Positions 37,337-60,825 of a DNA stretch of 64,000 nt are shown here, in pieces (the first letter of the stretch is position 1; every line of letters starts with the position of its first letter). Below the pieces are notes generated by a model, which searched no databases, was not told where the DNA came from, and saw only the letters and a list, made by a program, of their open reading frames with translations. A program made the position numbers and the translations under genes. This DNA is from Planctomycetota bacterium (GTDB lineage Bacteria; Planctomycetota; UBA11346), in NCBI GenBank assembly GCA_043775355.1, contig JAYVSL010000025.1:224-64223 (forward strand), given 5' to 3'.

Positions 37337-37412
37337 GCTCCCATCGTCTAGAGGCCTAGGACAACGGGTTCTCATCTCGTGAACGCGAGTTCGAATCTCG
37401 CTGGGAGTACCA
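37337..37412 (+). tRNA. tRNA-Glu (anticodon CUC)
   Basis: Hand-folded cloverleaf. Acceptor GCTCCCA/TGGGAGT. D arm GTCT-AGAGGCCTA-GGAC, identical in pattern to the bacterial tRNA-Glu D arm. Anticodon stem ACGGG/CTCGT with loop TT-CTC-AT. T arm GCGAG-TTCGAAT-CTCGC. Encoded ACCA end. 76 nt. Confidence 0.9.
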
Positions 37413-40304: not shown

Positions 40305-40372
40305 AGGAATCCTGGAAGACGATGGTGTAGAAAAGTTCATTCGGCGCCTCGCAAGCTGGTGATGAAACACAT

Positions 40373-44044: not shown

Positions 44045-45610
44045 TTAGCGGGGTGTAACTGCTGCCGCTGGAACCGTTGCGGGCTGAACCGCTGGCGCTG
44101 CTGCTGCTGGCGCTGCCTGCGCTTGCATGCCGCTGCCTTTGGTCAACGAATTCGGCCACGCGATCAACAACACCACGGCGATTGCCGCGCTCGCCAATGA
44201 CCAGCGTGCCAACATTGGCGTCGGCGCGATGGCTGGCTCTTTGTTGGTCGCCGCCCACAGCGCGACAATCATGCGAATGTAATACGCCGCGCCGACCACC
44301 GCCATCACCATGGCGAAGATCGCGATCATCATTTTGCCCTTCGCTACCAAGTCAGCAAAAATCAAAAACTTACCGAGAAAACCAACCGTTGGTGGAATGC
44401 CAGCGATGGAAATCAAGAACACCGTCAGCACTAAACCATAGAACGGTTGAGCACGGCCCTGGCCGGCCAAACCACTCAAGCTGTCGCCCTGATCATCTTT
44501 ACCCGAAATCGCCGCAAAGGCAGACAACGCACCTGCCGTCGCGATGGCGTAACCGACCAGATAGAACCACAGGCTGCCAAGCTGTAAACGTTCGCCGACG
44601 CCAATGGGAAGAGCGAGCGCCAACATCATGTAACCGCCGTGCGCAATCGAGCTGTACGCGACGATGCGACGAGCACTGGTTTGCTTGAGGGCACTGAAAT
44701 TTCCGAGCACTAAACTCAGCAGGCCAAGCACCAAAAACGCGAGATTTAATTTTTCTAATTTATCAACTCCACCAGCCGTGAGTGTTACCGCATCGCCAAG
44801 GTTCAGGACGCCGCCGTTGTGCGTACCGCTCATCACCGCAGCCAAGTTGAGCCAAATAGCGCCGAGAGCAGCAAAGCCGCCAACTTTAATGACAGCGCCC
44901 ATGAAACCGGTGACAGCAATCGGTGCGCCAGTGTAAGCGTCCGGGGCCCAGAAGTGGAACGGCACGACGCCCACTTTGAACAGCAGACCGATGATCATCA
45001 GCACTTGACCAAACTGCAAAAGATTCGCGTGTTGAGCATCGATCGGAGCATGACCAAACGCGGTGAAACCCGTGGCTCCGTAGGTCAGCGCCGAACCATA
45101 CAGAAAGATCGCGCTGAACACGGAACCCATGACAAAATATTTAAACAACGCCTCGTTCGATTCTGGACGCGTACGGCGCAAGCCAACCATGGCATAGATC
45201 GACAGTGACGCGAGTTCGATGCCGACGAACAACGCCAGGCTGTCATTCGCCATGGTCATGATCAGCGCGCCAATCGTGGCGAGCAACGTCAGTGCATAAG
45301 CTTCGCCACCTGGATATTCGTCACGACCAAGACTTTGCTGCATGCCCGCTATGGAACACAACGCCGCAGCTAAAATGGCTTCGCACAACCACATCCGCGA
45401 GTGGTCCATCGCCAGGATGCCATGCAAATGACCGGGCTCAGCGAACGCCTGGACCACGCCAGCGAGAACCAAAAAGGCGGCACTCAACCAAGGAATCAAC
45501 GCATGCTTCGTTGCCCGTTGCAAAAACGGTTCGAAGCCCAGGGAGACCAAGGCGCCGATGAGCACCAATGTCAGCGGCAAAAGCAGCAGGAAAAGGTCGG
45601 CGGTGGGCAT
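44045..45610 (-). CDS. nuoN: NADH-quinone oxidoreductase subunit N
   Basis: 521 aa, polytopic antiporter-like subunit. Last gene of the nuo cluster. Typical FKVGVVPFHFWAPDAY motif. Ala/Pro-rich C-terminal tail. Confidence 0.9.
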   Translation of the reverse strand: MPTADLFLLLLPLTLVLIGALVSLGFEPFLQRATKHALIPWLSAAFLVLAGVVQAFAEPGHLHGILAMDHSRMWLCEAILAAALCSIAGMQQSLGRDEYPGGEAYALTLLATIGALIMTMANDSLALFVGIELASLSIYAMVGLRRTRPESNEALFKYFVMGSVFSAIFLYGSALTYGATGFTAFGHAPIDAQHANLLQFGQVLMIIGLLFKVGVVPFHFWAPDAYTGAPIAVTGFMGAVIKVGGFAALGAIWLNLAAVMSGTHNGGVLNLGDAVTLTAGGVDKLEKLNLAFLVLGLLSLVLGNFSALKQTSARRIVAYSSIAHGGYMMLALALPIGVGERLQLGSLWFYLVGYAIATAGALSAFAAISGKDDQGDSLSGLAGQGRAQPFYGLVLTVFLISIAGIPPTVGFLGKFLIFADLVAKGKMMIAIFAMVMAVVGAAYYIRMIVALWAATNKEPAIAPTPMLARWSLASAAIAVVLLIAWPNSLTKGSGMQAQAAPAAAAPAVQPATVPAAAVTPR

Positions 45611-45614
45611 GGTA

Positions 45615-47225
45615 TCAGGGGCTCACAGATGGGACGGCCGCAGGAGCGGTCGCAGGAATGGCAGTGGACTTGGCAGCCGACGCTTTGGCTGGATCAGCTT
45701 TAGAGGCTTCAGCTTTGGCAGTAACAGCCTTGGCAGTAACAGCTTTAGCTTTGGCCGCAGCTGCCTCTTTGGCCAGTTCAATCACGACCGGGACGGCTTG
45801 GTCATTGATGGGTTTTGGGTAAAAACCAAAGACAAAACTCAGCAACAACAGCGGCACCACCGCCAGCACTTCGCTGGCGCTGAGATCTGGCAAGCGATCA
45901 AGGCTAGGATGGCGTTTGCCATACAACCAGCGCTGGACCACCCGCAGCAAGTAAACCGCGCCCAAGATAACCGATAAGCCAGCGATCACGGCGACGGTGA
46001 AACCCAGGCCGAGGTAGCTGCCGAACAACAACATAAATTCGCCAATGAAGTTCGCGGTTCCTGGCAGAGCAGCCGAAGCCAGAGCCGTGACCACGAACAA
46101 CAACGCGAAAATCGGCGTGCGTCCAGCCAGCCCACCAAAATCATCCAAGCCACGGCTGGAAGTACGGGCTTCCATATATCCCACCAATAAGAACAGCGCC
46201 GCGACCGACAATCCGTGCGCCACCATTTGCAACGGCACACCGGCCAACGCTGCTGAATGGAAACTGAAAATGCCGACCATCACCAAGCTCAAATGGCTCA
46301 GACTCGAAAATGCGATCATGCGTTTGATGTCGTCCTGGGCCATGGCGACCAACGCGCCACCAACGACGCCGATCAAACCGAGCACCACGAACACGCTGGA
46401 GTATTCCACGCACATCGCGGGAAACATCGGCAGAACGAAGCGCAGAAAGCCGTAAACACCAATCTTGGCCATCGCACCAGCCAACAGCACCGCGCCACCG
46501 GCAGGAGTTTCGCTGTAGGTTTTGGCCTGCCACGAATGGAAAGGCACCAACGGAACTTTTACCGCGAATGCGAGCACGAAAGAAAGGAACAAACACAATT
46601 CGCCCTGGGCGGTCAACTGACCCGACGCCCGCAGGCCTGGTAAATCAGTGATGATGCGTGCGAGCTCGGTTGAGCCGGTCTTCCATGCCAACCACCAAAT
46701 GGCGACCAACATGAAGATCGAACCGAACATGGTGTACAGAAAGAACCATAACGACGCGCTGCGGCGTTCGGCACCGCCGAATATCGCAATCAACACCACC
46801 ATCGGCACCAGCATGGCTTCAAAGAAGAGGTAGAAGAGCACCAAATCGCGCGACAACAGCGCGCCAATCATCAACGCTTCCATGATCAATACCGCGCTGA
46901 CGAAATCGCGCATGCGCTCGCCAACTAACTTGCGGCTGCCAAGAATTGCTATCGGCGTCAACCACGTCACCAGCTGAATAAGCCAGGCGCTAAGACCATC
47001 GCTCGCCAGATGCAAGTGCACCGTGGCGTTCGTGCCCCACAGGGTGAACCACGGTAAGCTGGCGTCCAACCCTGGCATGCAGGTCACCAGCGGCAGCCCC
47101 AACAGGGCGACCATGAGGGAAAGCAAGAAGCCGACGCGAAAACTTGATTCGCCATCTTTGCCAGAGGCGAAGACGGTAATCAGAGCGGCAACAAGCGGCG
47201 CAACGAGTAAAGCGTAGAGGAGCAT
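45615..47225 (-). CDS. nuoM: NADH-quinone oxidoreductase subunit M
   Basis: 536 aa. AFAVKVPLVPFHSWQAKTYSETP is typical of NuoM/ND4. It has a C-terminal Ala/Lys-rich repeat tail (AKAKAVTAKAVTAKAEASKA...). Confidence 0.9.
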   Translation of the reverse strand: MLLYALLVAPLVAALITVFASGKDGESSFRVGFLLSLMVALLGLPLVTCMPGLDASLPWFTLWGTNATVHLHLASDGLSAWLIQLVTWLTPIAILGSRKLVGERMRDFVSAVLIMEALMIGALLSRDLVLFYLFFEAMLVPMVVLIAIFGGAERRSASLWFFLYTMFGSIFMLVAIWWLAWKTGSTELARIITDLPGLRASGQLTAQGELCLFLSFVLAFAVKVPLVPFHSWQAKTYSETPAGGAVLLAGAMAKIGVYGFLRFVLPMFPAMCVEYSSVFVVLGLIGVVGGALVAMAQDDIKRMIAFSSLSHLSLVMVGIFSFHSAALAGVPLQMVAHGLSVAALFLLVGYMEARTSSRGLDDFGGLAGRTPIFALLFVVTALASAALPGTANFIGEFMLLFGSYLGLGFTVAVIAGLSVILGAVYLLRVVQRWLYGKRHPSLDRLPDLSASEVLAVVPLLLLSFVFGFYPKPINDQAVPVVIELAKEAAAAKAKAVTAKAVTAKAEASKADPAKASAAKSTAIPATAPAAVPSVSP

Positions 47226-47245
47226 CTGGGGCTATCCGCGGGCGG

Positions 47246-49363
47246 TCAGAAAAGGAATTCGAGGAGCAAAAAGATAATCGCTACGCCGACAGCCGTCAGG
47301 CCGACGACCCAAGCGAGTGGTCCGGTGAGCAATAACAGTGACACCAAGCCAACCGCACCAGAGGTGCTTAAGGCCAGCGAACTGCGCAAACGTGGACGTT
47401 GAATGCTGGTGTAGCCATCACCCAAAAAGCGTGCGACATCGGCGGTCAAACCAACGACGCCAGCAACCAGGGCATCGACAATCCAGGCCATGATCCAGGC
47501 AATAATTTTCGTCGGCAGGATAACGATAACGTGATAAACGCGATCGAAACCCCAGGTCCACCACGCCGCGAAGCCGACCAAATCTTTTTCGCTGCTGTCG
47601 ACGTGACCACGGCGCCAGATGAGGAAGGCGACGATCAGTCCGGCCACAGCCGCGAGCAGTCCGGCAAGCATCGGCCAGAGCGAGCCGTGACCATGTTCAG
47701 CAGCGGCAACCACAGCGGCGCCATGCGCAGCAGGCTGATGCAGGAACGCTTGAGCGTCTCCAAGGATCGGCTTCAGATACGATTCAAACGCATGGGTACC
47801 AAAATTGATCTGCTCCAACAGCGGTGACCACAACACGCCCACCACCAAACTGCCGAACCCGAGAATGGCGATCGGAATCAGCATGGTCGCTGGTGATTCG
47901 TGCACCTTGCCCTTCACCTCATCGCTGTGACGCGCGGGACTCCAAAAAGTTAGATACATCACCCGACTCATGTAAATCGCAGTCACCAAAGCCACGATCA
48001 CTGCGACCACGCCGATGAACGGAGCAAAACCATGGCCCTCAAACAAACGCTCCAAAATTAAATCTTTGGAGAAGAAGCCGGAACCGAGGGGCAGACCAAT
48101 GATCGCGTACCAGCCGAAGAAGAAACACGCATGAGTAATGGGCATGAGTTTGGTCAACCCACCCATCCGGCGCATGTCTTGTTCGTGATGCAAACCATGG
48201 ATCACGGAACCCACTGAAAGGAACAACGTCGCTTTGAAGAACGCGTGCGTGAAGACATGGAACAAGGCGACATCAAACGCGCCAACGCCACACGCCATGA
48301 ACATGAAACCGAGTTGACTGACCGTCGAATACGCGAGTGCCTTCTTGATGTCCAACTGCACCAGGCCAGCGATCGCACCCCAGGCCGCCGTCAAGCAACC
48401 GACTACTAACACCACATCTAAAGGTGTTAGACCAAAAAATACCGGTGCAGAAGCGTGCACAAAAACATCTGACAAACGCGCCAACAAATAAACGCCAGAC
48501 GTCACCATGGTGGCGGCATGAATCAACGCCGACACCGGAGTCGGACCAGCCATGGCATCTGGCAGCCACGTCACCAAAGGAATCTGCGCACTTTTGCCGG
48601 TGCAGCCTAAGAACAACAGCAAGCAGGCGGCGCCCAACAAACCCGCGCTGGCTGACATCAGCGGAATATTTTCCGTCGCTTGAAACCACACCGCGATGTC
48701 GTGGTAATGCATGCTTCCTTGGCCATTACTGTTCATCACCACATACAGCGCAAAAGCGCCGAGCAGGAATCCAAGGTCACCAATGCGATTCACGATAAAG
48801 GCTTTGCGCGCAGCGTCGTTGTATTCGTTGTTCTGATGCCAGAAACCGATCAGCAAGTAAGAACACATACCCACGCCTTCCCAGCCCAAGAAGGTCATCG
48901 GCAAGCTGTCGCCAATGACCAAAATGATCATCGAAAACATGAATAGATTGAGGTAAGCCATGAATCGCGCAAAGCCGCGATCCTCCCACATATAGCCAAC
49001 CGAATAGAGATGAATCAGCGTACCGATGCCGGTTATGAAGAGCAGCATCATGCTGGTCAGGCGATCGAACATCAAACCGGCCGTCAGCGAGAAAGAAAAG
49101 CTATCCGACTTGAAGGCAATCCACTCCCATAAATTTTGTGTCAGTGAAACATTGCCAGGTGTAGCAACGCTGCTGAGTTTTATTGCCGCGATCACCGCGA
49201 TCACAAATGCCAGACCCGGCATCAATACGGCAATCACCGAGACAAATGCACGACTCGGACCGTACGCACTGCGCGCACCGCCCAGACTTAAAGCGCCATT
49301 CAGGATGGCACCCAGCAATGGCAGAAAAGGAATGAGCCAGAGCAGCTCGAACGTAACTTTCAC
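47246..49363 (-). CDS. nuoL: NADH-quinone oxidoreductase subunit L
   Basis: 705 aa. GKSAQIPLVTWLPDAMAGPTPVSALIHAATMVTSG is the NuoL/ND5 signature. C-terminal lateral-helix region is present. Confidence 0.9.
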   Translation of the reverse strand: MKVTFELLWLIPFLPLLGAILNGALSLGGARSAYGPSRAFVSVIAVLMPGLAFVIAVIAAIKLSSVATPGNVSLTQNLWEWIAFKSDSFSFSLTAGLMFDRLTSMMLLFITGIGTLIHLYSVGYMWEDRGFARFMAYLNLFMFSMIILVIGDSLPMTFLGWEGVGMCSYLLIGFWHQNNEYNDAARKAFIVNRIGDLGFLLGAFALYVVMNSNGQGSMHYHDIAVWFQATENIPLMSASAGLLGAACLLLFLGCTGKSAQIPLVTWLPDAMAGPTPVSALIHAATMVTSGVYLLARLSDVFVHASAPVFFGLTPLDVVLVVGCLTAAWGAIAGLVQLDIKKALAYSTVSQLGFMFMACGVGAFDVALFHVFTHAFFKATLFLSVGSVIHGLHHEQDMRRMGGLTKLMPITHACFFFGWYAIIGLPLGSGFFSKDLILERLFEGHGFAPFIGVVAVIVALVTAIYMSRVMYLTFWSPARHSDEVKGKVHESPATMLIPIAILGFGSLVVGVLWSPLLEQINFGTHAFESYLKPILGDAQAFLHQPAAHGAAVVAAAEHGHGSLWPMLAGLLAAVAGLIVAFLIWRRGHVDSSEKDLVGFAAWWTWGFDRVYHVIVILPTKIIAWIMAWIVDALVAGVVGLTADVARFLGDGYTSIQRPRLRSSLALSTSGAVGLVSLLLLTGPLAWVVGLTAVGVAIIFLLLEFLF

Positions 49364-49367
49364 CGGT

Positions 49368-49688
49368 CTACTCCTTCATGTCCGCGAAGGCATCGCTGTC
49401 GAGCGACTCGCGGCCACGGACGATGCAGATCACCATCGCGAGACCGACACAGGCCTCCGATGCGGCGATGGCAATGATAAAAATTGGCGTCATCTGACCG
49501 AACAGCGAAGCGCTGCCGGCAAATTCACGACTGAAACCGATGAAGCTCAGATTGACTGCGTTGAGCATCAATTCGATGCCCATCAACAAAAGAAAAACGT
49601 TTCGGCGGGTCAACGCGACAGCGAGCCCCAAACAAAACAGCACGGCAGCGACCACCTGCACGTCGCTCAGCGCGATGTAATTCATCAT
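49368..49688 (-). CDS. nuoK: NADH-quinone oxidoreductase subunit K
   Basis: 106 aa, three TM helices. GIELMLNAVNL and AAAEACVGLA-type motifs. Confidence 0.9.
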   Translation of the reverse strand: MMNYIALSDVQVVAAVLFCLGLAVALTRRNVFLLLMGIELMLNAVNLSFIGFSREFAGSASLFGQMTPIFIIAIAASEACVGLAMVICIVRGRESLDSDAFADMKE

Positions 49689-50506
49689 GAGTGATGCCCT
49701 TCTTCATGCGCAGGCTCGGTCGGCGGGCGACTTGCCAGCGAGCGCTTCGCCAACACCACCGCGCCGACCACCGCTGCCAGTAAAACCACGCCGATCAATT
49801 CGAAGAGAATATAAAAACCAGAACTCTGTGGGCGAATGTCAAACATCGCCGCCGACAACAGCGCAATTTCTCCGCGCGGCACCGCAACAGCGCGGAAGGT
49901 CACCGCAGCACTGCCACTGCGCTCTTTTGAACCGCTGATGGTGAGCTTCGCCGTATAGGTTCCTGTCGGTGCATCGTACGCATGACGGACTTCACGGCCG
50001 TTGGCGGTATTCTTGTCACCAAAATCCCACGAATACGTCGCGCCTTCGCCAGCATCCACCGCTGCGAAATGAACATTGGCCGTACTTTGATCCGATAGTG
50101 GTCGCTCAATCAAACCAGCTTTGTCATCACGTACGAACGCTGGTTTGGTGGCACTCAATGAGGTCGCCACTAACGCGGCACCGAGTACCACTGGTAACGC
50201 GAGTGCGGTAAGGCTGAACCAATCAAACACAGGAATACGATGCTCTTTGGCCTGGTTCAAAACCATGATAACGAACACCACCAACATCATCACCGCACCC
50301 GCGTAAACCAATACTTGCAGCACCGCTAAGAACGGACTGTTCAGCAAGGCGTAGATGCCAGACATGCTGAGCATCACGCCGATCAAATAGATCGCACCGT
50401 TGATCGGATGGCGCGCCAACAGCAGGCCAAGACCGCAAAAAATAGCGATACCGGCAAACAGCCAGAAATAGGCGGGACCTAAGATTGCGTCGAGCGAGTG
50501 GAACAT
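49685..50506 (-). CDS. nuoJ: NADH-quinone oxidoreductase subunit J carrying an inserted PKD-like domain
   Basis: 273 aa. Position between nuoI and nuoK, and a TM1-3 pattern like NuoJ/ND6. Between the fourth and last helices lies VHFAAVDAGEGATYSWDFGDKNTANGREVRHAYDAPTGTYTAKLTISG, a PKD-domain signature. Confidence 0.85.
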   Translation of the reverse strand: MFHSLDAILGPAYFWLFAGIAIFCGLGLLLARHPINGAIYLIGVMLSMSGIYALLNSPFLAVLQVLVYAGAVMMLVVFVIMVLNQAKEHRIPVFDWFSLTALALPVVLGAALVATSLSATKPAFVRDDKAGLIERPLSDQSTANVHFAAVDAGEGATYSWDFGDKNTANGREVRHAYDAPTGTYTAKLTISGSKERSGSAAVTFRAVAVPRGEIALLSAAMFDIRPQSSGFYILFELIGVVLLAAVVGAVVLAKRSLASRPPTEPAHEEGHHS

Positions 50507-50523
50507 GGCGTTTCGTGGTCGAA

Positions 50524-50586
50524 TGTGGACGAAGAAGCGGACAAGGAAGCGGACGAAGAAGCGGACGAAGAAGCGGACAAAGAAGC
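50524..50586. repeat. tandem 12-bp repeat (GAAGCGGACRAR, about 5 units) filling the nuoI-nuoJ spacer
   Basis: GTGGACGAA GAAGCGGACAAG GAAGCGGACGAA GAAGCGGACGAA GAAGCGGACAAA GAAGCA, read directly from the + strand. Confidence 0.9.
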
Positions 50587-50603
50587 AAAACTCTTATGAG
50601 TGT

Positions 50604-51179
50604 TTAGTGGTACGTTCCAGATTTGAATTCTTCAAGCGCTTGGGCGTTCAGCGAACCGCCTGGCGCTTTCTGACTCTGGAGATCATCCGCCGGATATTCC
50701 GACGGCTTCCATTCCATCATGGACTCGCGATTGATAACAAAATCGGCGCGGTTGTCGCCCGCCATCACGGCTTGACGAGTGTCCATGCGAATCGCATCGC
50801 ACGGGCACGCTTCAACGCAGTACCCGCAGAACACGCACAACAACAAATCGATTTCAAAACGCACTGGGCGTTTTTCGATATGCATGTCAGGTGATTCTTC
50901 AGCGACGATGTTGATGCAGCGCGCGGGACAGGCGGTCGAGCACATGAAACAAGCCACGCAGCGGGGACTGCCATCGGGGCGTTTCATCAGGCGGTGGCGG
51001 GCGCGGTAATCACGCGGCAGATCAGGTTGTTGCTCAGGATAATTGAGCGTTGGGAATTTGGTTATGCCGCTCAAATTGCGCACCGCGTGGCCCATGGTCG
51101 TCGCTAGACCTTTGAAGATCTCGACGAAATAGAGCTGTTCCCAGAAAGTGAGATTGGGACGAGGGATTACTTTCGCCAT
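50604..51179 (-). CDS. nuoI: NADH-quinone oxidoreductase subunit I (2x[4Fe-4S] ferredoxin-type)
   Basis: 191 aa. CVACFMCSTACPARCI and CVFCGYCVEACPCDAI cluster motifs. Confidence 0.9.
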   Translation of the reverse strand: MAKVIPRPNLTFWEQLYFVEIFKGLATTMGHAVRNLSGITKFPTLNYPEQQPDLPRDYRARHRLMKRPDGSPRCVACFMCSTACPARCINIVAEESPDMHIEKRPVRFEIDLLLCVFCGYCVEACPCDAIRMDTRQAVMAGDNRADFVINRESMMEWKPSEYPADDLQSQKAPGGSLNAQALEEFKSGTYH

Positions 51180-51186
51180 GGTCGAC

Positions 51187-52623
51187 CTACTTCACTAACT
51201 TGGCGATGAGCGCGGTAACCAGCAGGTTTACCAACGCGATGTTGAGCATGACCTTCCAGCCGAGTGCCATGATCTGGTCATAGCGGAAACGCGGCAGGGT
51301 CCAACGCACCCAGACGAACAACCAGGCTACCGCCAAGGTCTTGCCCAGCACGATGTGCAATTGGATGACTGCGGTGACTAAGCTGACCCACAGCGGATAA
51401 ATTGGCTTCGCTTCATAGACTGCACCCGACAGCGGCGTCGGCCCGCCCAACGCGAAAGCCAGCGCACCGCCAGCCACCGAAAGAATCGCCAGGAACATAA
51501 ATAGTCCTGAAAAGAGCGAGAATTCTTTCACGCGCTCAGCTTTGTCGCTGACCGGCAAGGCAGCGTACGCTTTTTTATGCACGCTCACCAAATGACTCAT
51601 AAGGAACAGCACGGCGGCACCAATGAATAAGAACACGCCACCGACTTGGCCCAAATGCGCCTGAATCCACGCAGTATCGAGCACCACCCACTGCAAACCT
51701 ACACTTGCACCGGCTGCGTCGAGGGCACCGAAGGACGGCACCGGAATAGGGAACGGCGCCAAGCTATAACCACCAAGGTACAAGGTCGAAATCAACGCTG
51801 ACGCCAGCAAGACGTGCAAGTATTCCGCGGTCATAAACATCATGAATTTCGACGACGCGAATTCGGTATGGAAACCCGCGACCAATTCAGAGTCACCTTC
51901 GGCGACGTCGAAAGGAGTACGATTGCACTCGGCAAACATCGAGACCAAGAACAGCGCAAAACCAACGGGCTGGACGATAATGCCCCACGCGTGCGTGGTC
52001 TGCCATTCAACGATGCGGGTCAGACTAAAATCGCCGACCAATAAAATCAGGCCAAGCACCGACAAGCCCATACTGACTTCGTAACTGATCATCATTGCCG
52101 AAGCGCGCAGGCCGCCGAGCAAAGAGAATTTCGAATTCGACGCCCATGAACCCAGCACCACGCCATAAACTGACAACGAACCAATCGCAAAGGTCAGTAA
52201 AAGTCCAGCATTCAGATCAAAGACCTGACCACTGATCACTTGCAGCGGACCGCCCTCTGGCTGATGAACGATCGGAGCAAACCACGGCAACGCGGCCGGA
52301 GTCAAAATTGCCGTCACCACCGGAATCGCAGGCGCCAAGATGTACCACCATTTGTGAGCGAACGGCGCGGTGAAACTTTCCTTGAACAACAACTTCACGG
52401 CATCAGCAAGGTTGAAGACCATGCCAAATCCGCGCAACTTCAACCCACCAGAAAACGGAATGGGTATGGCTGCACGATTGGGACCCGGACGATCTTGAAT
52501 GATCGCGGCGCCACGCCGTTCGATGAGAACGAGCAACGGCAAGACCTGGAAAAGCAGGGCGAAAATCAGCACCGGTTTGAGCAGAGTCAGGATGACGTCG
52601 AAATTCAGAATGAGGAAATCCAC
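51187..52623 (-). CDS. nuoH: NADH-quinone oxidoreductase subunit H (unusually long)
   Basis: 478 aa. AECNRTPFDVAEGDSELVAGFHTEF and WVRWTLPRFRYDQ are NuoH/ND1 signatures. About 120 extra residues lie between them. Confidence 0.9.
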   Translation of the reverse strand: MDFLILNFDVILTLLKPVLIFALLFQVLPLLVLIERRGAAIIQDRPGPNRAAIPIPFSGGLKLRGFGMVFNLADAVKLLFKESFTAPFAHKWWYILAPAIPVVTAILTPAALPWFAPIVHQPEGGPLQVISGQVFDLNAGLLLTFAIGSLSVYGVVLGSWASNSKFSLLGGLRASAMMISYEVSMGLSVLGLILLVGDFSLTRIVEWQTTHAWGIIVQPVGFALFLVSMFAECNRTPFDVAEGDSELVAGFHTEFASSKFMMFMTAEYLHVLLASALISTLYLGGYSLAPFPIPVPSFGALDAAGASVGLQWVVLDTAWIQAHLGQVGGVFLFIGAAVLFLMSHLVSVHKKAYAALPVSDKAERVKEFSLFSGLFMFLAILSVAGGALAFALGGPTPLSGAVYEAKPIYPLWVSLVTAVIQLHIVLGKTLAVAWLFVWVRWTLPRFRYDQIMALGWKVMLNIALVNLLVTALIAKLVK

Positions 52624-52625
52624 GT

Positions 52626-54284
52626 TCAGGCTCCTGCCGTCACTGGCTGTTGAGCCGCGACGTTCTGATCAATGGAGCAGCCCATGGGGCCGATGGAGCG
52701 GTACGTCATGCCAGCGAATTGCGGCACCCGTGCTTGAGCCGCTTTCCACGCGTCAACTTCTGACGTCCAGCTCAGCGCCTTCGTGCCTGCGGATGATAAT
52801 CCCACCAGTACCGACCACGCTGCTTCCAATTGCGAGTTCGGCACCACCGGGCAAGCCTGCAATAACTGCACGACGCCGTTGACATTCACCATGCTGCCGC
52901 GCACTTCTGCCCACGCACGAATACCAATCGCGATGGTGGCTTTGGCCACGGTCTGATCGACCCAGGACGACAAGACGATACGCGTTGGGATCACTTCGAG
53001 CTTCGCTGCTTTATCAGCATTCGCCGCCCACAGATCGTGACCGACGACCACTAAGGCATCGAATTCTTTCGCCTTAGCGACCAACTCATCAAGGTTGTCC
53101 TTGATGCTGAGCAGCGTCACACCTTTGCGATTCGCCACCGGATCGCCGCTCAGCGCGATGCCATCCGCCTTGCCAACCGTCAGCCATGAGCCACCGAAAA
53201 CTTCGGCCTTGGCACCGAGCGATTCCGCCAACGCCATCGCAGCGATATTGTCTTCCGTGGTCAAATGCCCACTGGCGACAATCGCCACGCGCTTCGCGTT
53301 CTTCAGCGCAACTACGGCGGCAGCCTGGGCTTCATCGATGGTGCAATCGACTCCGGCTTTTTTGCCGTCGGTCAGACGATTGACTGCCAACTGCTGATAC
53401 AGCATACGCGTGCGATTGGCGATCCAGCTTTTGTTCACGTTCGGATTACGGCGCGGCATCAAACGCCACACCTTGCCGCCTTGCGAACCAGAAATGTTAT
53501 AATCGATGGTCAGGTTCGCGCCGAGCGCATCGCTGGGATCAATCGACTCCACGCTCTTGAGCATCCATACGCGCTGTTGAAAGCGGAAATGTTTGCCGGT
53601 CAACGCGCCGACTGGGCAAATGTCGGTGGTGTTCAAATCATATTCATGATTCAACGGTTCATCAGGGAAGGTCGTCAGATACGCGTGATCACCACGGCCA
53701 GCGATGTCGAGCTGCGGTGACTTCGCCACGTCGCTCATGAAACGGACGCAACGCGTGCAAATAATGCAGCGTTCTTGATCGAGTACGATGCTCGGTCCGA
53801 GATCGATTTTCTTGCCGCCGCGCTCATGACCTTTGCTGTCGACGAAACGATGATCGGCACCGCCTTTGTATTGCTTTCCGACCGAGTCATCGAGTCGGCT
53901 CTCATGCTTGCCTTGACCCATGTAGTGCTCTTGCAGCGTGCACTCACCGGCTTTATCGCAAATCGGGCAATCGAGCGGATGATTGACCAACAAAAATTCC
54001 ATCACGCCTTTGCGCAGCTTGACGATTTTTTCGCTGCTGATCTGCGTACGGACTTTCATCCCAGGCGCGGTCTGCATGTGGCATGAAATGCCCAACGCAA
54101 ATCCACGCGGACCTTCGACCTCAACCAAGCAAATGCGGCAATTGCCCGCGACCTTGAGATCTTGGTGATAACAAAAGGCGGGCGTCTCGGTCTGAGCCGG
54201 GCCGCGCAGCGCTTCAATCAGCTGAACGCGAGGCGGAACCTGCACGTCTTTGCCGTCAACATTGATCGTGATGGTATCAGACAT
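52626..54284 (-). CDS. nuoG: NADH-quinone oxidoreductase subunit G
   Basis: N-terminal 2Fe-2S ferredoxin part (ITINVDGKDVQV...CYHQDLKVAGNCRICLVEV), then HPLDCPICDKAGECTLQ and CIICTRCVRF clusters. I start at ATG 54284 (MSDTITINVDG). The track start 54350 lies inside the repeat spacer. Confidence 0.85.
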   Translation of the reverse strand: MSDTITINVDGKDVQVPPRVQLIEALRGPAQTETPAFCYHQDLKVAGNCRICLVEVEGPRGFALGISCHMQTAPGMKVRTQISSEKIVKLRKGVMEFLLVNHPLDCPICDKAGECTLQEHYMGQGKHESRLDDSVGKQYKGGADHRFVDSKGHERGGKKIDLGPSIVLDQERCIICTRCVRFMSDVAKSPQLDIAGRGDHAYLTTFPDEPLNHEYDLNTTDICPVGALTGKHFRFQQRVWMLKSVESIDPSDALGANLTIDYNISGSQGGKVWRLMPRRNPNVNKSWIANRTRMLYQQLAVNRLTDGKKAGVDCTIDEAQAAAVVALKNAKRVAIVASGHLTTEDNIAAMALAESLGAKAEVFGGSWLTVGKADGIALSGDPVANRKGVTLLSIKDNLDELVAKAKEFDALVVVGHDLWAANADKAAKLEVIPTRIVLSSWVDQTVAKATIAIGIRAWAEVRGSMVNVNGVVQLLQACPVVPNSQLEAAWSVLVGLSSAGTKALSWTSEVDAWKAAQARVPQFAGMTYRSIGPMGCSIDQNVAAQQPVTAGA

Positions 54285-54296
54285 GAATGGCTCCGA

Positions 54297-54404
54297 GCTT
54301 CGCTCGTGAAGCTGCGAGCTTCGAGCTACGCGCTTCAAGTTGAAAAACAAAACGCAGATTGGTCGCTGGAGAGACTCGCAGCTCGCAGCTCGTTGCTCGT
54401 AGCT
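54297..54404. repeat. inverted heptamer arrays (AGCTGCG family) in the nuoF-nuoG spacer
   Basis: + strand 54310-54344 reads AGCTGCG AGCTTCG AGCTACG CGCTTCA AGTTGAA. 54375-54404 reads CTCGCAG CTCGCAG CTCGTTG CTCGTAG CT (complementary orientation). About 30 nt lie between them. Confidence 0.85.
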
Positions 54405-54410
54405 TATTCC

Positions 54411-55757
54411 TCACCAGAACGCTCCTGGGCGCTGAGTCACCAGATCGCGCGCCGTGGCGTGCTCAGGATTCTGATCGATATAACGCTGAAAGTGTTCGCG
54501 ATACTTGGCGATGAAACTTTGCACCGGCCACGCCGCACCAGGCGCGAAAGCGCAGATGGTGGTCCATTCATAACTATCGGCGAGGTCTTTGATCAGGTCG
54601 ATGTCGCCATCTCGTCCTTTACCATCAATCACTTTATCGAGTACACGATCGACATAGCCAGTGCCTTCACGGCACGGCGTGCACTGACCGCAAGATTCAT
54701 GAGCATAGAATCGCGCGATGGTTTGCAAAAATTTCGGTACATCGGTGGTGGTATTGAATGGCGTGATCGCGCCAGAACCAAGCATCGACTTCAAAGCCGC
54801 CAAGGATTCATAATCGAGCGTCGCTTTGCGAGTTTCGTCGGCCGTCAAGACTGGCGCCGAAGAACCGCCAGGAATACAGCCGAGCAATTCACCCTTCAAA
54901 CCGCCGCACAATTCGAAGAACTCCGAGTACGACATGCCGAGCGGCACTTCATAGACGCCGGGTTTCACAATATCGCCACTGATCGAAAACAATTTCGAGC
55001 CGGGGCTCTTATCGGTACCAAATTGACGGTACCCCTTTGCGCCATGCTTCAAAATGTATGGCACCGCCATAATCGTTTCGACGTTATTGACCACCGTCGG
55101 AGAAGCGAACGCGCCGCTTACTGCGGGGAATGGTGGCTTCAAACGTGGTTGGCCTTTGAAGCCTTCCAGCGAATTGATCAAGCCAGTTTCTTCACCACAG
55201 ATGTACGCACCAGCGCCGCGATGGACGTAGATGTCGAGCGAATATTGCGAGCCGCCGATGTTTTCACCGAGCAGGCCAGCAGCGTACGCTTCTTTGATCG
55301 CATCGTTCAAACGAGTGATTTGCGGCAGCATTTCGCCGCGCACATAAATATATGCCGTGCGTACGCCCAATGCGTAGCCGGTAATAATCATCCCTTCGAG
55401 CAGCAAGTGCGGATCGCGTTCCATGCACATGCGATCTTTGAAGGTGCCAGGCTCGCCTTCGTCGGCGTTAATAACCAAATACACAGGCTTACCCGTGCCA
55501 CGTGGCACGAAAGACCACTTCATGCCGGTGGGAAATCCCGCACCGCCACGACCGCGCAGGCCGGAATCTTTGACCAACTCAATCAGCTCAAGCTGGCTCT
55601 TATCAAACAGCATCGGCCCAACGGTGTCGTAGGCGCCGTGTTGTTTCGCGACCGCCAAGGTGTGGCCATTATCGACCTGGAACAACCGGCTGAGAATGCG
55701 CGGCAGTTCTTTGCCTTTCCAATGCGTCGGCTGAGGAAATCCGTGGAGCGTGGTCAT
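54411..55757 (-). CDS. nuoF: NADH-quinone oxidoreductase subunit F
   Basis: 448 aa. GLRGRGGAGFPTGMKW (FMN/NADH site) and ESCGQCTPCREG (N3 cluster) motifs. Confidence 0.95.
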   Translation of the reverse strand: MTTLHGFPQPTHWKGKELPRILSRLFQVDNGHTLAVAKQHGAYDTVGPMLFDKSQLELIELVKDSGLRGRGGAGFPTGMKWSFVPRGTGKPVYLVINADEGEPGTFKDRMCMERDPHLLLEGMIITGYALGVRTAYIYVRGEMLPQITRLNDAIKEAYAAGLLGENIGGSQYSLDIYVHRGAGAYICGEETGLINSLEGFKGQPRLKPPFPAVSGAFASPTVVNNVETIMAVPYILKHGAKGYRQFGTDKSPGSKLFSISGDIVKPGVYEVPLGMSYSEFFELCGGLKGELLGCIPGGSSAPVLTADETRKATLDYESLAALKSMLGSGAITPFNTTTDVPKFLQTIARFYAHESCGQCTPCREGTGYVDRVLDKVIDGKGRDGDIDLIKDLADSYEWTTICAFAPGAAWPVQSFIAKYREHFQRYIDQNPEHATARDLVTQRPGAFW

Positions 55758-55759
55758 GA

Positions 55760-56812
55760 TCAGACCTTAGCCGGCGTAGCGGCGGTGGCTGGCGGAGGCG
55801 TAGCTTTACCAGTAGCAGTAATCGCCGCACTTGGACGCGCAACGCGTTCCTTTTCGTGCGCGATAACGCGATATTGAGCGCTGACACCTTCAGGTAATTT
55901 ATCGGCAGATTTCTGATCTTTCGGACTTGGCGTCGCCAGCTCGCGCCACGACACGCCGTTATCATCCGAACGCTCGACGATGATCGAGGTGCAACCAGGA
56001 TCGTTAATCCAGGTCAGCGCAATCGCTTCACCAGTGACAGCAGCACCAAGTTTCAGCGCCGGAGCTGGTGGGCAGTACGTCGGCGGCAACGTTTTCGCTT
56101 CCGCACCAGGCGCACCGGGATGGCCCTTGGTGTTGAGTACCAAATGACCGACCGCGTCGGGCGTAACGGGCAGCGGCTTGCCAGTGAAACCATTCGCCGT
56201 GGGCGACTTTTTGTGCTCAGCGCGCAAGAAGGCAATCCATTGATCGAGCAACGCGCTGGTCGGATGAAAATCAGGAACTGACAAATGTTCTTCGCTGACT
56301 CCAGCTTTGCCTAATGCATGCGGCTTCGGGCCAATCGCTTGATCATCGATCATCACGCCAGGGCCAGTACCGCAGAGCGCAAGGCATTCAACGCGCACCA
56401 AGGTAAAAAGACCATCGCTGGTGGTTTCGCCACTGTGAACGCCGAGCGATTTTTCCAAATGTTCAATCAGATTTTCACTGCCTTGAATATAGCAGCACAT
56501 GGTCTGACAAATCTGAATCAGGTGCTTACCCGTCGGAACCTGACGATACATGGTGTAAAATTCAGTAACGCCAAAAGCATGCACGTGGCTGACCGCACAC
56601 GTATCAGCCGCCCACTTGATGCCTTCGCGTGGAACCCAGCCGAATTCTTCCTGCACCAACCACAAAGCCTGCAATAAAGCTCCGCGTTTGACCGGGTACC
56701 GACGCCATAGTTCTTCGACTCGCGGCTGGTACTTGGCCATGCGATTCTTCAGCACTTCAGTGGTGAGATCCTTGGGCTGGTGCTCAGCGGGATTTACTGT
56801 GCAACCGCTCAC
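55760..56812 (-). CDS. nuoE: NADH-quinone oxidoreductase subunit E with a ~190-aa C-terminal extension containing an FN3-like module
   Basis: Thioredoxin-like 2Fe-2S part (YPVKRGALLQALWLVQEE...ICQTMCC...VECLALCGTGPGVMID). I start at GTG 56812 (GGAGA 6 nt upstream). The track start 56878 reads through heptamer repeats. ATG 56740 is an alternative. Confidence 0.85.
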   Translation of the reverse strand: MSGCTVNPAEHQPKDLTTEVLKNRMAKYQPRVEELWRRYPVKRGALLQALWLVQEEFGWVPREGIKWAADTCAVSHVHAFGVTEFYTMYRQVPTGKHLIQICQTMCCYIQGSENLIEHLEKSLGVHSGETTSDGLFTLVRVECLALCGTGPGVMIDDQAIGPKPHALGKAGVSEEHLSVPDFHPTSALLDQWIAFLRAEHKKSPTANGFTGKPLPVTPDAVGHLVLNTKGHPGAPGAEAKTLPPTYCPPAPALKLGAAVTGEAIALTWINDPGCTSIIVERSDDNGVSWRELATPSPKDQKSADKLPEGVSAQYRVIAHEKERVARPSAAITATGKATPPPATAATPAKV

Positions 56813-56833
56813 GATTGGTCTCCAAGCAGAAGA

Positions 56834-56988
56834 AGCTGCGAGCTGCAAGCTGCGAGCTGCGAGTTGAAGGCGGGACAACGGAGCTGCGAGCTGCGAGCTG
56901 CAAGCTGCGAGTTAAATACAGGACGACGGAAGTCGAAATCGAAGCTCGAAGCTTGTAGCTCGTAGCTGATCGCTCGTAGCTCGTAGCT
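56834..56988. repeat. three heptamer arrays (two direct AGCTGCG arrays plus one AGCTCGT array) in the nuoD-nuoE spacer
   Basis: 56834-56863 reads (AGCTGCG/AGCTGCA)x4 then AGTTGAA. 56882-56912 has the same unit x4 then AGTTAAA. 56943-56988 reads AGCTCGA AGCTTGT AGCTCGT AGCTGAT CGCTCGT AGCTCGT AGCT. Confidence 0.9.
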
Positions 56989-56996
56989 AATTAGAG

Positions 56997-58190
56997 TCAT
57001 CGGTCGAGCTCTCCGGCAATAATATTAATCGAACCAAGCGAGGCGGCGACGTCAGACAGCATGGAGCCGGTGAGCATGTCGCCGTACGCAGCGAATTGAG
57101 TGAAACATGGTGGGCGCACTTTGACGCGGTACGGATTCGTGCCGCCGTCAGAAACAATCAGATAACCGAGTTCGCCGTTGGCGGCTTCAGTCGCGTCGTA
57201 ACACGTTCCCGGTGGCGGGCGAACGCCTTCGTACACCAGTTTAAAGCTATTGATCAACGCCTCCATGTCGTGGTAGACGCGTTCACGGCTCGGTAACGAC
57301 ATCCGCGCATCAGGACTGTTAATCGGTCCTGGCTTCAAGCGATCAAGCGCCTGACGGGTAATCGATACCGATTCGATCATTTCATAAATACGCACCATGA
57401 TGCGATCAAAGGTGTCGCCGCTGGTGCCGATGACGGTGTCAAAGTTGTAGGTTTCGTAGCCGTAATACGGCTCGTCTTTGCGCAGATCGCGATCAACGCC
57501 GCATGCACGCAGGCACGGTCCCGTCCAGCCCCAGCTAATCGCATCGGCAGCCGACACCGCGCACACATCCTTGGTACGATCGATAAAGATTTTATTGTGC
57601 TCAATCAAGCCGCGAACTTCGCCAACTGCCTTTTCAATATTGATGAGCACGCCGCGAACGTCGTCCTCAAAACCCTGATACACATCGCGGTACATGCCGC
57701 CGATTCGGGTCACGGTGTTGGTCAGGCGCGCGCCGCAGAGTTTTTCCCAGATCAGGTAAACTTGTTCACGCGTATTGAAGAAGTACCAGAAATTGGTCAG
57801 CGCACCAAGGTCAACCAGATTGGTACACACGCACACCATGTGATCGATGATGCGTGACAACTCGCTGAGGATAATGCGCAAAGTAATGCAGCGTTCTGGC
57901 ACCGTGACGCCGAACATTTTTTCGGTCGCCTTGCAGAAGCCGATGTTGTTCATCATCGCGCTGCAATAATTCAGACGATCGGTATATGGCAGCACCTGCG
58001 AATAGGTGCCTTGTTCGATCATCTTTTCGAAACCGCGATGCAGGTAACCGATTTCAGTCGCGCAGGCAGCGATGGTTTCGCCATCAAGGGCCGCGAAAAT
58101 ACGCAGCGTTCCGTGTGTCGCGGGATGACTTGGACCGACATTGATGGTCATCAAGTCGACGTGATCGCCAGCAGGATTAATGACTTTCAC
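56997..58190 (-). CDS. nuoD: NADH-quinone oxidoreductase subunit D
   Basis: 397 aa. NVGPSHPATHGTLRI, IGYLHRGFEK and a C-terminal ...GELDR. Confidence 0.95.
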   Translation of the reverse strand: MKVINPAGDHVDLMTINVGPSHPATHGTLRIFAALDGETIAACATEIGYLHRGFEKMIEQGTYSQVLPYTDRLNYCSAMMNNIGFCKATEKMFGVTVPERCITLRIILSELSRIIDHMVCVCTNLVDLGALTNFWYFFNTREQVYLIWEKLCGARLTNTVTRIGGMYRDVYQGFEDDVRGVLINIEKAVGEVRGLIEHNKIFIDRTKDVCAVSAADAISWGWTGPCLRACGVDRDLRKDEPYYGYETYNFDTVIGTSGDTFDRIMVRIYEMIESVSITRQALDRLKPGPINSPDARMSLPSRERVYHDMEALINSFKLVYEGVRPPPGTCYDATEAANGELGYLIVSDGGTNPYRVKVRPPCFTQFAAYGDMLTGSMLSDVAASLGSINIIAGELDR

Positions 58191-58861
58191 GACTTGCCTC
58201 CGGCCTTGGTCGTTCCCAGCGATGGCACTGCTGAGGCTTCCGTAATTAGTTCACCGGTATGGGGCTCGCCGCGATCAAGGATGGTATAGCCCTGGGCGCG
58301 CAGACGCGCTTCTAGCTGATCGATCATCGGATCGTTGGTCGACAGTTTCTGCCGCTTCTGGCACGGATAATCCTTACGCAGTGGATGGCCAAGAAACTCA
58401 TGATGATTCAGCAAACGCTTCAAGTTAGGATGGCCGGTAAAGACGATGCCGTATTGATCCCAAGTCTCGCGCTCTGCCCAATCAGCACTTTTAAAAATAT
58501 CGTGAATGCTGGGGACCGCACAGGCTTCTTCTTCGACCATCACTTTGATGGTCACACGATGACGGAACGCCATGCTTTTCAGCAAATACAGCACGGCAAA
58601 ACGCTCACCGCGATAGCCAGGATAGGCAAGGAAATCGACGCCCACTACGTCGAGCAACATGCTGAACTGCAGAGTCGACTCATCACGCAGAAAACGAATG
58701 ACGTCGCGCAACTTCTCTGGACGACACAGCAGCGTCAAATCCCAGCGATCCGTGGCGTCACGCTCAAGGCCAAAACGCTCTTTCATCACAGCGACGAGCT
58801 GTTCAACACTTTGTCCAGCCAACATCGGACCATGCGGCACCGTGGATGATTTTGAACTCAT
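58187..58861 (-). CDS. nuoC: NADH-quinone oxidoreductase subunit C
   Basis: [23 protein letters not shown] is typical of NuoC. I start at ATG 58861, which forms an ATGA overlap with the nuoB stop. The track start 58957 would overlap nuoB by 100 nt. Confidence 0.9.
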
Positions 58862-59376
58862 ACGCCTACCGTCCGTTGCTCGGTCATCGATTCCAAATCG
58901 ATCTTCTTCTGCAACTGCACGATCGCCTCCAAAAATGCTTCCGGACGGGGAGGGCAACCAGCAATGTATACGTCGACCGGGATAATTTCATCAACCCCAG
59001 GAACCGTGCAGTAGCAGTCGTAAAAACCACCGGACGAGGCGCAGGCACCGGCTGAAATGACCCAGCGCGGTTCGCACATTTGCTCATAAATGCGCCGCAA
59101 CACGGGCGCCTGTTTATAGGTCACCGTGCCAGCGATGATCATCAAGTCCGCTTGGCGCGGGCTAAAGCGCACTAATTCAGCACCGAAACGCGACACGTCG
59201 AATACCGAACTGACCACACCCATAAATTCGATCGCGCAACAAGCCGTGCCAAACGGAAACGGCCACAGGCTATTGCGTCGACCCCAGTTCACGACGGCAT
59301 CAAGCCGGGTCAAAGCGAAAGCGTTACCGAGATCTAATTCAGGAGTAACCGCAGCAGGAACGTTTTTGTAGGTCAT
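58858..59376 (-). CDS. nuoB: NADH-quinone oxidoreductase subunit B
   Basis: [19 protein letters not shown] and AGCPPRPE (N2 cluster ligands). I start at ATG 59376 (GAGGA upstream), which avoids overlap with nuoA. Confidence 0.9.
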
Positions 59377-59416
59377 GGGTGAATCCTCATGGTGGGAAAA
59401 TAGTCGGTAAAACCGC

Positions 59417-59896
59417 CTATTTATCCCAATCCAACGCACCTTTCTTGAACAGGTACACATAACCAACACCGATCAACACCAAGAACTCGACCAGAAACAA
59501 CATCATCTCCCAACCACCGTGATTAAAGTGCACTGCCCACGGGTACAGGAACGCGACTTCAATATCGAAGGCGAGAAACAACATCGCGATGAGATAAAAT
59601 TTGACGTCAAAGCGTTCGCCTGCGGTGCCCAACGTTCCGGGTAGACCACTTTCATAAGGCTCATTTTTTCCAGGGTTCGTATTGTGCGTGCCGTGGGCAA
59701 AGCGGCTAAAAATTGTATTCAAACCGAGCAACGCAGCAGGCACGACCAAACCCAAAATCAGCAACATCGTCAATGGAAAAACCATATCGAAAACGCTCGG
59801 CGTTTCATCGATGATGGCCTTCGCCGTGGCGACCACAGGGGCCCCCTCCGCAGCGGGTACGAGTTGCATCAACGCAGCCGAAATCACCGCCATCAT
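59417..59896 (-). CDS. nuoA: NADH-quinone oxidoreductase subunit A
   Basis: 159 aa. EPYESGLP and [13 protein letters not shown] motifs. AAGGA lies 9 nt upstream of ATG 59896. The N-terminal ~37 aa precede the first TM helix; an internal Met at 59785 would give a more typical 122 aa. Confidence 0.85.
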
Positions 59897-60276: not shown

Positions 60277-60825
60277 ATGCTTGGAGTAACCTGTCAGTTG
60301 TGTTCCAAGCGCCCAGCGACTTCGCATCTGACTGAGCTGGATCCTGGTACTGGTCAACGCCAAGAGTTACACATTTGTGCTACCTGCATCCAACGACTCG
60401 ATCTGAAGTTGGAAAACGGCCCACCGTCGATTGCCGACATCCTCGACATGAAGCCTGACGATGCGTCGAGTGCTAAAATAAAAATTACCAGCGGCCTCAG
60501 TATGCCTTCGATGGTGAAAAATGATGAGCGCTGCCCCCACTGCGGACTTGCCTTTTCTGAATTTGGCTCCGGTAAGCTCTTCGGCTGTGCCCATGATTAC
60601 GCTGCTTTTGGCGATAAAGTCGAAGCTTTGCTGCGTAATTATCACGGTACCACGCGCCACGTTGGTCGCCGTCTTGGCAGCGAACCTGATGCACCTGAAA
60701 GCGCAGCCATCGTCCACCGAGCCAGCCTCGATGCGGCGTTACGCCAAGCGGTCATGAGCGAGAATTACGAAAATGCGGCTAAACTCCGCGACGAACTGCG
60801 GCAGCTGGATGAACCCTCTGCCTGA
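60277..60825 (+). CDS. mcsA: McsA-like protein arginine kinase activator (zinc-ribbon plus UVR domain)
   Basis: 182 aa. N-terminal CQLC...CATC and CPHCG...C Cys pairs and a C-terminal UVR-like ENYENAAKLRDELRQL. It lies directly upstream of mcsB. Confidence 0.75.
   Translation: MLGVTCQLCSKRPATSHLTELDPGTGQRQELHICATCIQRLDLKLENGPPSIADILDMKPDDASSAKIKITSGLSMPSMVKNDERCPHCGLAFSEFGSGKLFGCAHDYAAFGDKVEALLRNYHGTTRHVGRRLGSEPDAPESAAIVHRASLDAALRQAVMSENYENAAKLRDELRQLDEPSA

Follow-up and report, generated by a model that had tools for sequence, protein, structure and literature searches.

The stretch of DNA analysed here (hereafter the window) comprises 64,000 nucleotides from a Planctomycetota bacterium (GenBank assembly GCA_043775355.1, contig JAYVSL010000025.1, positions 224 to 64,223 of the forward strand). 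On its minus strand it contains a complete operon for respiratory complex I (nuoA-N), and the nuoJ gene of this operon codes for a core membrane subunit in which a PKD domain is inserted between the fourth and the fifth transmembrane (TM) helix. A Pfam match was obtained for each of the subunits, whose genes are arranged as follows:

44045..59896, minus strand: complete nuoA-N operon, 14 genes
59417..59896, minus strand: nuoA
in order between nuoA and nuoG, minus strand: nuoB, nuoC, nuoD, nuoE and nuoF
52626..54350, minus strand: nuoG
51187..52623, minus strand: nuoH
50604..51179, minus strand: nuoI
49685..50506, minus strand: nuoJ, 273 amino acids plus stop codon (open reading frame list, Pfam Oxidored_q3, nuoJ/nuoK junction)
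49368..49688, minus strand: nuoK
47246..49363, minus strand: nuoL
45615..47225, minus strand: nuoM
44045..45610, minus strand: nuoN

The NADH-oxidising module is present in the form of NuoE, NuoF and NuoG, and the Pfam matches of all operon genes place nuoJ at its canonical position with nuoI upstream and nuoK downstream. The host enzyme is an NADH-oxidising complex I of 14 subunits and NuoJ is its ordinary, operon-encoded subunit. The gene is a single open reading frame free of stop codons that starts with ATG and whose last 4 bases overlap the start of nuoK (ATGA); both halves of NuoJ and the PKD domain share one frame. In a sequence-only reading made before, which was silent on the strand, a PKD-like peptide within NuoJ had been quoted, and this peptide is exactly present in the translated frame.

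The NuoJ/ND6 model Oxidored_q3 (PF00499) matches with E=1e-26 and 93.9 bits (cut-off 33.2), and this match covers profile positions 2-146 of 146 spread over residues 25-252 of the protein. The NuoJ equivalog models of NCBIfam (PRK06638 series) all remained under their cut-offs, the best being NF005165 with 81.8 bits (cut-off 192), which falls in two stretches. These low scores are explained by the insertion that splits the match and by the divergence of the lineage, so that family membership rests on Pfam, structure and synteny. The protein was said to be unusually long for a NuoJ and indeed it is, since solved NuoJ/ND6/NdhG chains have 162-252 residues and the nearest relatives that lack the PKD domain (P0032-P0039) have 187-198. 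In these relatives a linker of 10-12 residues is found in place of residues 120-210. From alignments of NuoJ, first with 28 relatives and later with 98, and from the predicted structure the following segments can be defined:

50150..50506, minus strand: residues 1-119, highly conserved core with TM1-TM4 (AlphaFold2 helices, alignments, NdhG alignment)
49877..50149, minus strand: residues 120-210, inserted segment (alignment with the nearest PKD-less relatives)
49889..50137, minus strand: residues 124-206, PKD fold, an immunoglobulin-like (Ig-like) β-sandwich (AlphaFold2, Foldseek, Pfam, sequence matches)
50015..50029, minus strand: residues 160-164, WDFGD motif
49733..49876, minus strand: residues 211-258, 'RGE..MFD' helix (214-221) and TM5 (231-258) (AlphaFold2, alignments)
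49688..49732, minus strand: residues 259-273, C-terminal tail, predicted as cytoplasmic from the positive-inside count (K254, R255 and R260 lie where it starts)

Two Pfam models recognise the insert over residues 143-199, namely PKD_4 (PF18911; E=5.8e-12, 45.9 bits, cut-off 27) and PKD (PF00801; E=1.2e-8, 35.2 bits, cut-off 23.5), although only profile positions 23-77 of 85 are matched. All three Pfam scores, that of Oxidored_q3 included, lie far above chance level. The signature of the family is present with WDFGD at residues 160-164 and HAYDAPTGTYTAKLT (the H.Y...G.Y.v.L motif) at 175-189; the tryptophan, F-G-D, the histidine, G-T-Y and the leucine are at least 80% conserved among 31 family members. 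High conservation resumes at R211 with the 'RGE..MFD' helix and TM5, where R211, F222, G230, L234, F235, E236 and following positions are invariant in the alignment. Searching the sequences of the PDB separates the two components in the same way. The N-terminal 115 residues and residues 229-262 align to NdhG/NuoJ chains (the TM1-TM4 region to residues 11-112 and the TM5 region to residues 141-174 of Thermosynechococcus elongatus NdhG), and residues 142-203 align to the PKD domains of ColH and ColG and of an archaeal S-layer protein. As the gap between the two NuoJ blocks comprises 28 residues in T. elongatus NdhG and 113 here, the net insertion amounts to ~85 residues.

The AlphaFold2 model, calculated from an alignment of 99 sequences (mean predicted local distance difference test score, pLDDT, 81), shows five long helices at residues 3-30, 34-54, 58-83, 96-119 and 231-258 as well as a short one at 214-221. 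Eight β-strands are predicted within residues 124-206 with block pLDDT values of 86-96, and this full fold indicates that the domain is complete despite the partial coverage of the Pfam profile. It is connected by linkers of only ~4-7 residues (119 to 124 and 206 to 214). Comparison of the model with the PDB by Foldseek yielded on the one hand NdhG/NuoJ chains of cyanobacterial, Paracoccus, mycobacterial and E. coli complex I and on the other hand PKD crystal structures, i.e. ColG (4aqo and 4jrw), ColH (4jgu), PrtV (4l9d), Epp (6aem) and the S-layer protein 1l0q, besides Ig-like domains of the surface glycan-binding protein SGBP-B. The probability was 1.00 for 4aqo, 4jrw, 6aem and 4l9d, with target-normalised template modelling scores (TMt) of 0.59-0.68. 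It was 1.00 also for 1l0q_A but with TMt 0.17, because this chain of 391 residues holds a β-propeller in addition. Among these PDB matches no solved NuoJ/ND6 bears such a domain. The claim of a PKD domain placed between TM4 and TM5 of NuoJ is thus borne out by Pfam scores above cut-off, alignments, structure prediction and fold comparison; the span 49886-50086 given for it corresponds to residues 141-207 ('STANVHF...TFRAV') and comprises most of the domain, not all of it.

The same architecture recurs in independent data. Within about 5.8 billion protein clusters, ~33 clusters combine PF00499 with PKD at 45-97% identity, and they stem from ENA, JGI, NCBI and Logan assemblies. Their lengths are mostly 268-281 residues, with one of 343 and three shorter ones that are apparently partial; a single identical protein, 97% identical to that of the window, is coded on three separate contigs. 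When one genome per species was scanned (185,579 species), 451 related nuoJ loci were found and the best 80 retained, of which seven (L001-L007) contain the insert. All seven belong to metagenome-assembled genomes of uncultured 'Planctomycetota bacterium' from different projects. A search with the full protein among 1.84 billion representatives for fusions in other phyla was dominated by giant proteins of 1,000-7,000 amino acids with 7-67 PKD repeats, and only P0020, the fragment P0031 and P0036 surfaced among them as representatives of the NuoJ-PKD type. P0036 (343 residues, on a JGI metagenome contig of 2113 bp) is the most divergent member. Its linkers are longer, and its PKD domain is interrupted between the penultimate and the final strand by a further insertion of ~50 residues ('PVSPAEYQAAKAARERKEREFRDYMKALKEH...') that is charged and probably helical; this extra insertion is known from a single sequence on one short contig.

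It might be argued that an assembly chimera, a frameshift or a mis-called reading frame has joined a PKD fragment to nuoJ, a danger that had been foreseen for this site. The sole oddity pointing in that direction is the lower G+C content at third codon positions (GC3) in the insert, 0.51 compared with 0.67 in the rest of the gene. However, a single frame without stops runs through both NuoJ halves and the PKD domain, the architecture is repeated in the clusters and genomes mentioned above including the protein of 97% identity on three contigs, and the dip in GC3 is found in 8/8 orthologues where it follows the GC3 of each host. Recurrence in independent assemblies refutes the artefact, which we regard as hardly conceivable; the insertion between TM4 and the helix preceding TM5 is complete, in frame and real.

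The history of the domain is closely tied to that of its carrier. Sequences that differ more in the NuoJ core also differ more in the PKD segment; their pairwise distances correlate strongly (Mantel r=0.877, 0/999 permutations being as high), the PKD segment evolving ~2.4 times faster (mean p-distance, i.e. proportion of differing sites, 0.48 vs 0.20). Ratios of non-synonymous to synonymous substitution rates (dN/dS) were calculated according to Nei-Gojobori for pairs that are not saturated:

window and L081: PKD 0.084, core 0.053
window and L001: PKD 0.148, core 0.051
L081 and L001: PKD 0.175, core 0.028
L002 and L003: PKD 0.195, core 0.124
L006 and L007: PKD 0.70, core 0.38

The four pairs other than L006-L007 show that the PKD domain is under purifying selection which is weaker than that on the core. 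Concerning base composition, only 2.6% of the 83-codon windows in the soluble nuo genes have a GC3 as low as that of the insert. Amino-acid composition, codon usage or an effect on translation rate are possible causes. A recent horizontal origin was considered as well and rejected, since the dip occurs in all eight orthologues and the GC3 of the insert tracks that of the host over a range of 0.43-0.92. Together with the correlated distances this tracking speaks for old vertical inheritance and not for recent transfer.

In a neighbour-joining tree of NuoH, NuoI, NuoK, NuoL and NuoM (1902 columns) the PKD bearers are monophyletic with 100% bootstrap support and the PKD-less L010 is their sister, again with 100%; no loss of the domain is seen in this five-gene tree. 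A tree of the NuoJ core only has PKD-less sequences nested within the PKD clade, and one of NuoI, NuoK and NuoL is ambiguous (50%). A single gain of the domain is the best reading, and there may have been a secondary loss in the L009/L010 lineage. Probably one insertion event took place in the ancestor of a small uncultured clade of Planctomycetota from lakes, bogs and soils, from which the domain would have been passed down vertically with nuoJ. Nothing among the PKD repeats of the multi-PKD giants qualifies as donor: the best single repeats reach at most 35 bits, with 33-46% identity over 59-93 residues and one stretch of 36 residues at 61%. Direct repeats as a footprint of the insertion were also sought. 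One exact 10-nt repeat (49875-84 and 50174-83) was rejected as it is at chance level, for which we estimate ~0.3 per gene; its copies lie in different reading frames and the upstream one is within TM4, off the border of the insert.

The location of the domain can be predicted from the membrane topology. Outside the long loop all 6 lysines and arginines are found in loop 31-33, loop 84-95 and the C-terminal tail, and the N-terminus and loop 55-57 contain none. By the positive-inside rule this distribution puts the N-terminus outside and the C-terminus inside, and consequently the TM4-TM5 loop on the periplasmic side. The predicted topology of five TM helices agrees with solved structures. In complex I of Paracoccus denitrificans the C-terminal extension of ND6 climbs onto the hydrophilic, cytoplasmic domain, and bacterial ND6-TMH4 is positioned towards ND5-TMH16 (corresponding to NuoJ-TM4 and NuoL-TM16); periplasmic β-hairpins are described as stabilisers of the bacterial membrane domain where NDUFA8 and NDUFS5 are absent (PMC11522691). 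In the Drosophila enzyme the TMH3-4 loop of ND6 is located beneath NDUFA9 on the matrix side and the TMH4-5 loop holds a β-hairpin; the position of ND6-TMH4 and its flanking loops differ between species and were judged functionally unimportant (PMC9977279). From this variability and the periplasmic orientation of the loop it follows that the insertion is located in the most permissive part of the subunit. The suggestion that the TM4-TM5 loop faces the periplasm is therefore upheld as a prediction by the charge count and by the published structures (PMC11522691, PMC9977279), and we strongly infer that the PKD domain resides in the periplasm, close to the membrane surface and near the NuoJ/K/L junction.

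What could such a domain contribute to complex I? We tentatively favour, at somewhat below an even chance, an accessory domain built into NuoJ, by which the periplasmic face of the membrane arm would be stabilised or shielded. TM4 would lead the chain out of the cytoplasm and TM5 would return it, leaving the PKD domain in the periplasm, where its short linkers would hold it against the periplasmic face. At the NuoJ/K/L junction this 'supernumerary-like' domain probably covers the surface by packing onto it or shielding it, and it may help the enzyme to assemble or to remain stable rather than take part in electron transfer or proton pumping. Being part of the NuoJ polypeptide it is no separate supernumerary subunit although it may act like one, and the reading is drawn by analogy with the periplasmic β-hairpins and the accessory subunits of the intermembrane space. 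Several observations weigh against it. The closely related complex I enzymes L009 and L010 do without the domain; in one subclade (L006/L007) its motif has degenerated to WTFSD and the constraint looks relaxed. No indel specific to the PKD clade was found in NuoH, NuoK, NuoL, NuoM or NuoN, every candidate being present in the PKD-less sister L010 too. Conservation of at least 80% among the 31 members essentially follows the core pattern of PKD domains in general (V.F.A.DAG...Y.W.FGD....GR...H......GTY.A.L), the sole conserved extra being a G-x-I-x-x-P stretch on the first strands, and the surface diverges fast, with p-distances of up to 0.73. The purifying selection itself could simply mean that an insert which misfolds is costly to a subunit the cell depends on.

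Part of these observations would be expected if the domain were a tolerated passenger, inserted by chance into a permissive loop and kept foldable by selection without any function of its own. No part of ND6/NuoJ varies more than this site (PMC9977279), conservation is limited to residues of the fold core while the surface evolves fast, and L006/L007 have relaxed constraint; the sister lineage functions without the domain, neighbouring subunits have no co-varying insertions and the NuoJ-core tree with its nested PKD-less sequences is compatible with secondary loss. We nevertheless consider a mere passenger rather improbable. The domain is intact, without decay or truncation, in 31/31 full-length aligned sequences that span a divergence of up to 36% in the core and up to 73% in the PKD segment, and bacterial genomes have a general deletion bias in spite of which it was retained. 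Moreover, four close pairs that are independent of one another have dN/dS values well under 1, and the best-supported tree, that of five genes, is without loss. A docking function, as raised in the sequence-only reading, would mean that complex I is recruited or positioned through the PKD domain, which would bind a separate partner on the periplasmic side: a protein of the periplasm or the membrane, a second respiratory complex within a supercomplex, or a glycan of the envelope. Elsewhere PKD domains and their Ig-like relatives are known as spacers or as modules that bind proteins or carbohydrates, and the fold matches to collagenase PKD domains and to SGBP-B, the purifying selection on the domain and the charged extra insertion of P0036, which suggests elaboration of an exposed module, fit this idea. 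On the other hand, a conserved surface patch beyond the fold core was not found, the genes flanking the nuo operon are housekeeping genes (among them those for an acyltransferase and MTHFR) with no co-occurring gene and no candidate partner beside it, and the short tethers confine the domain to the membrane surface. Docking in this general sense is unlikely though worth keeping in mind; the more specific view of a dedicated periplasmic platform, linking complex I to a component that might be a respiratory complex, a periplasmic redox protein or a planctomycetal envelope structure, appears doubtful.

Other subunits of this operon have peculiarities as well. NuoH is 478 residues long, the usual length being roughly 325-340. 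Its main Pfam match (NADHdh) stops at residue 328, corresponding to profile position 248 of 298, and is followed by ~100 residues with two extra hydrophobic helices (~345-365 and ~385-410). A tie between this long NuoH and the PKD domain was considered and rejected because NuoH has ~445-480 residues in PKD-less loci too, across related Planctomycetota and Fibrobacterota (451 in Fibrobacter). The two-helix insertion is lineage-wide, as this length of NuoH is shared by essentially all related loci. The nuoE gene (55760..56878, minus strand) codes for a C-terminal extension of ~190 residues (roughly 55763..56330) after the 2Fe-2S thioredoxin-like domain, for which no Pfam match was obtained even at E<=10. 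By eye its last ~100 residues ('LTWINDPGC..VERSDDNGVSW...YRVIAHEKERVARPS') have the look of an FN3/Ig-like β-sandwich; a single-sequence AlphaFold2 model contains strands only and is, with pLDDT 52, too poor for a fold search. This extension is kept in nearly all related loci of Planctomycetota and Fibrobacterota including Fibrobacter (~30-85% identity over full-length matches) and is therefore a feature of this type of complex I, unlinked to the NuoJ PKD domain. Residues ~490-536 of NuoM form a low-complexity Ala/Lys/Pro tail ('AKAKAVTAKAVTAKAEASKADPAKASAAKS...') that is partly shared with L010. The following features were observed in the neighbourhood of the operon:

60277..60825, plus strand: protein with UvrB/UvrC motif
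60880..61950, plus strand: ATP:guanido phosphotransferase of the protein arginine kinase type
37470..40370, minus strand: open reading frame of 966 amino acids with only a weak Calx-beta match (32 bits)
37337..37409, plus strand: tRNA adjoining the 966-residue frame, the only Rfam match in the window

The first two, which lie immediately upstream of nuoA and are oriented divergently to the operon, form a pair of UVR-motif protein and guanido phosphotransferase that resembles McsA/McsB.

Few proteins are known to be as conserved in architecture as the seven core subunits of the membrane arm of complex I, and the lineage-specific additions described so far are to our knowledge extra subunits, terminal extensions and short or disordered loops. 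In the searchable full-text literature no description of a NuoJ-PKD fusion was found, in accordance with the sequence-only reading, whose author was aware of none. Database pipelines record both Pfam domains and yet label the proteins 'NADH-quinone oxidoreductase subunit J'. The architecture will surprise complex I specialists. It demonstrates that the TM4-TM5 loop of NuoJ is able to accept a whole folded domain; this loop offers a natural permissive site for engineering or tagging of the P side (i.e. the periplasmic, intermembrane-space or lumenal face) of complex I. In the sequences searched the fusion is confined to a small uncultured clade, for which it provides a marker within the Planctomycetota, and it has no bearing on the core mechanism of the enzyme. 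If the domain should bind something, a novel way of coupling complex I to the periplasm would come to light. A docking platform, if true, would correspond, in a bacterial and fused form, to the accessory subcomplexes on the P side of mitochondrial complex I and of chloroplast NDH. It would also be the first case of a folded domain outside the cytoplasm that belongs to a membrane core subunit of the bacterial enzyme.

Compared with canonical NuoJ/Nqo10/ND6/NdhG subunits (chain J of 3RKO from E. coli, of 4HEA from T. thermophilus and of 8QBY from P. denitrificans, chain G of 6HUM from T. elongatus) the protein has the same five TM helices, the conserved TM1-3 core and TM5 and a gene between nuoI and nuoK. 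It differs by its TM4-TM5 loop, which has 111 residues with a folded PKD domain instead of the ~25-30 residues in solved homologues. Known extensions of ND6 in P. denitrificans and Mycobacterium smegmatis are C-terminal and on the cytoplasmic side (PMC11522691), whereas here the TM4-TM5 loop is concerned. With the PKD domains of ColG/ColH (4AQO, 4JRW, 4U6T), PrtV PKD1 (4L9D) and the Methanosarcina S-layer protein (1L0Q) the inserted domain shares the fold, the WDFGD motif and the size of ~85 residues; its location is predicted to be extracytoplasmic like theirs. Known PKD domains are, however, modules of secreted or surface proteins, mostly in tandem or beside a catalytic domain, in contrast with the single copy that is flanked here by TM helices in a core subunit of a respiratory enzyme. 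Additions to the P side of complex I comprise NDUFA8, NDUFS5 and other intermembrane-space subunits in mitochondria and the lumenal subcomplex of chloroplast NDH. In bacteria, periplasmic β-hairpins are described as stabilising the membrane domain (PMC11522691). All these accessory elements, to which a stabilising role is ascribed, resemble the NuoJ PKD domain in being additional protein outside the catalytic machinery, on the face that looks to the periplasm, the intermembrane space or the lumen; by this analogy we infer that the PKD domain may have a stabilising role as well. Unlike them, being separate polypeptides or short hairpins non-homologous to PKD, it is a whole Ig-like domain fused into a core subunit.

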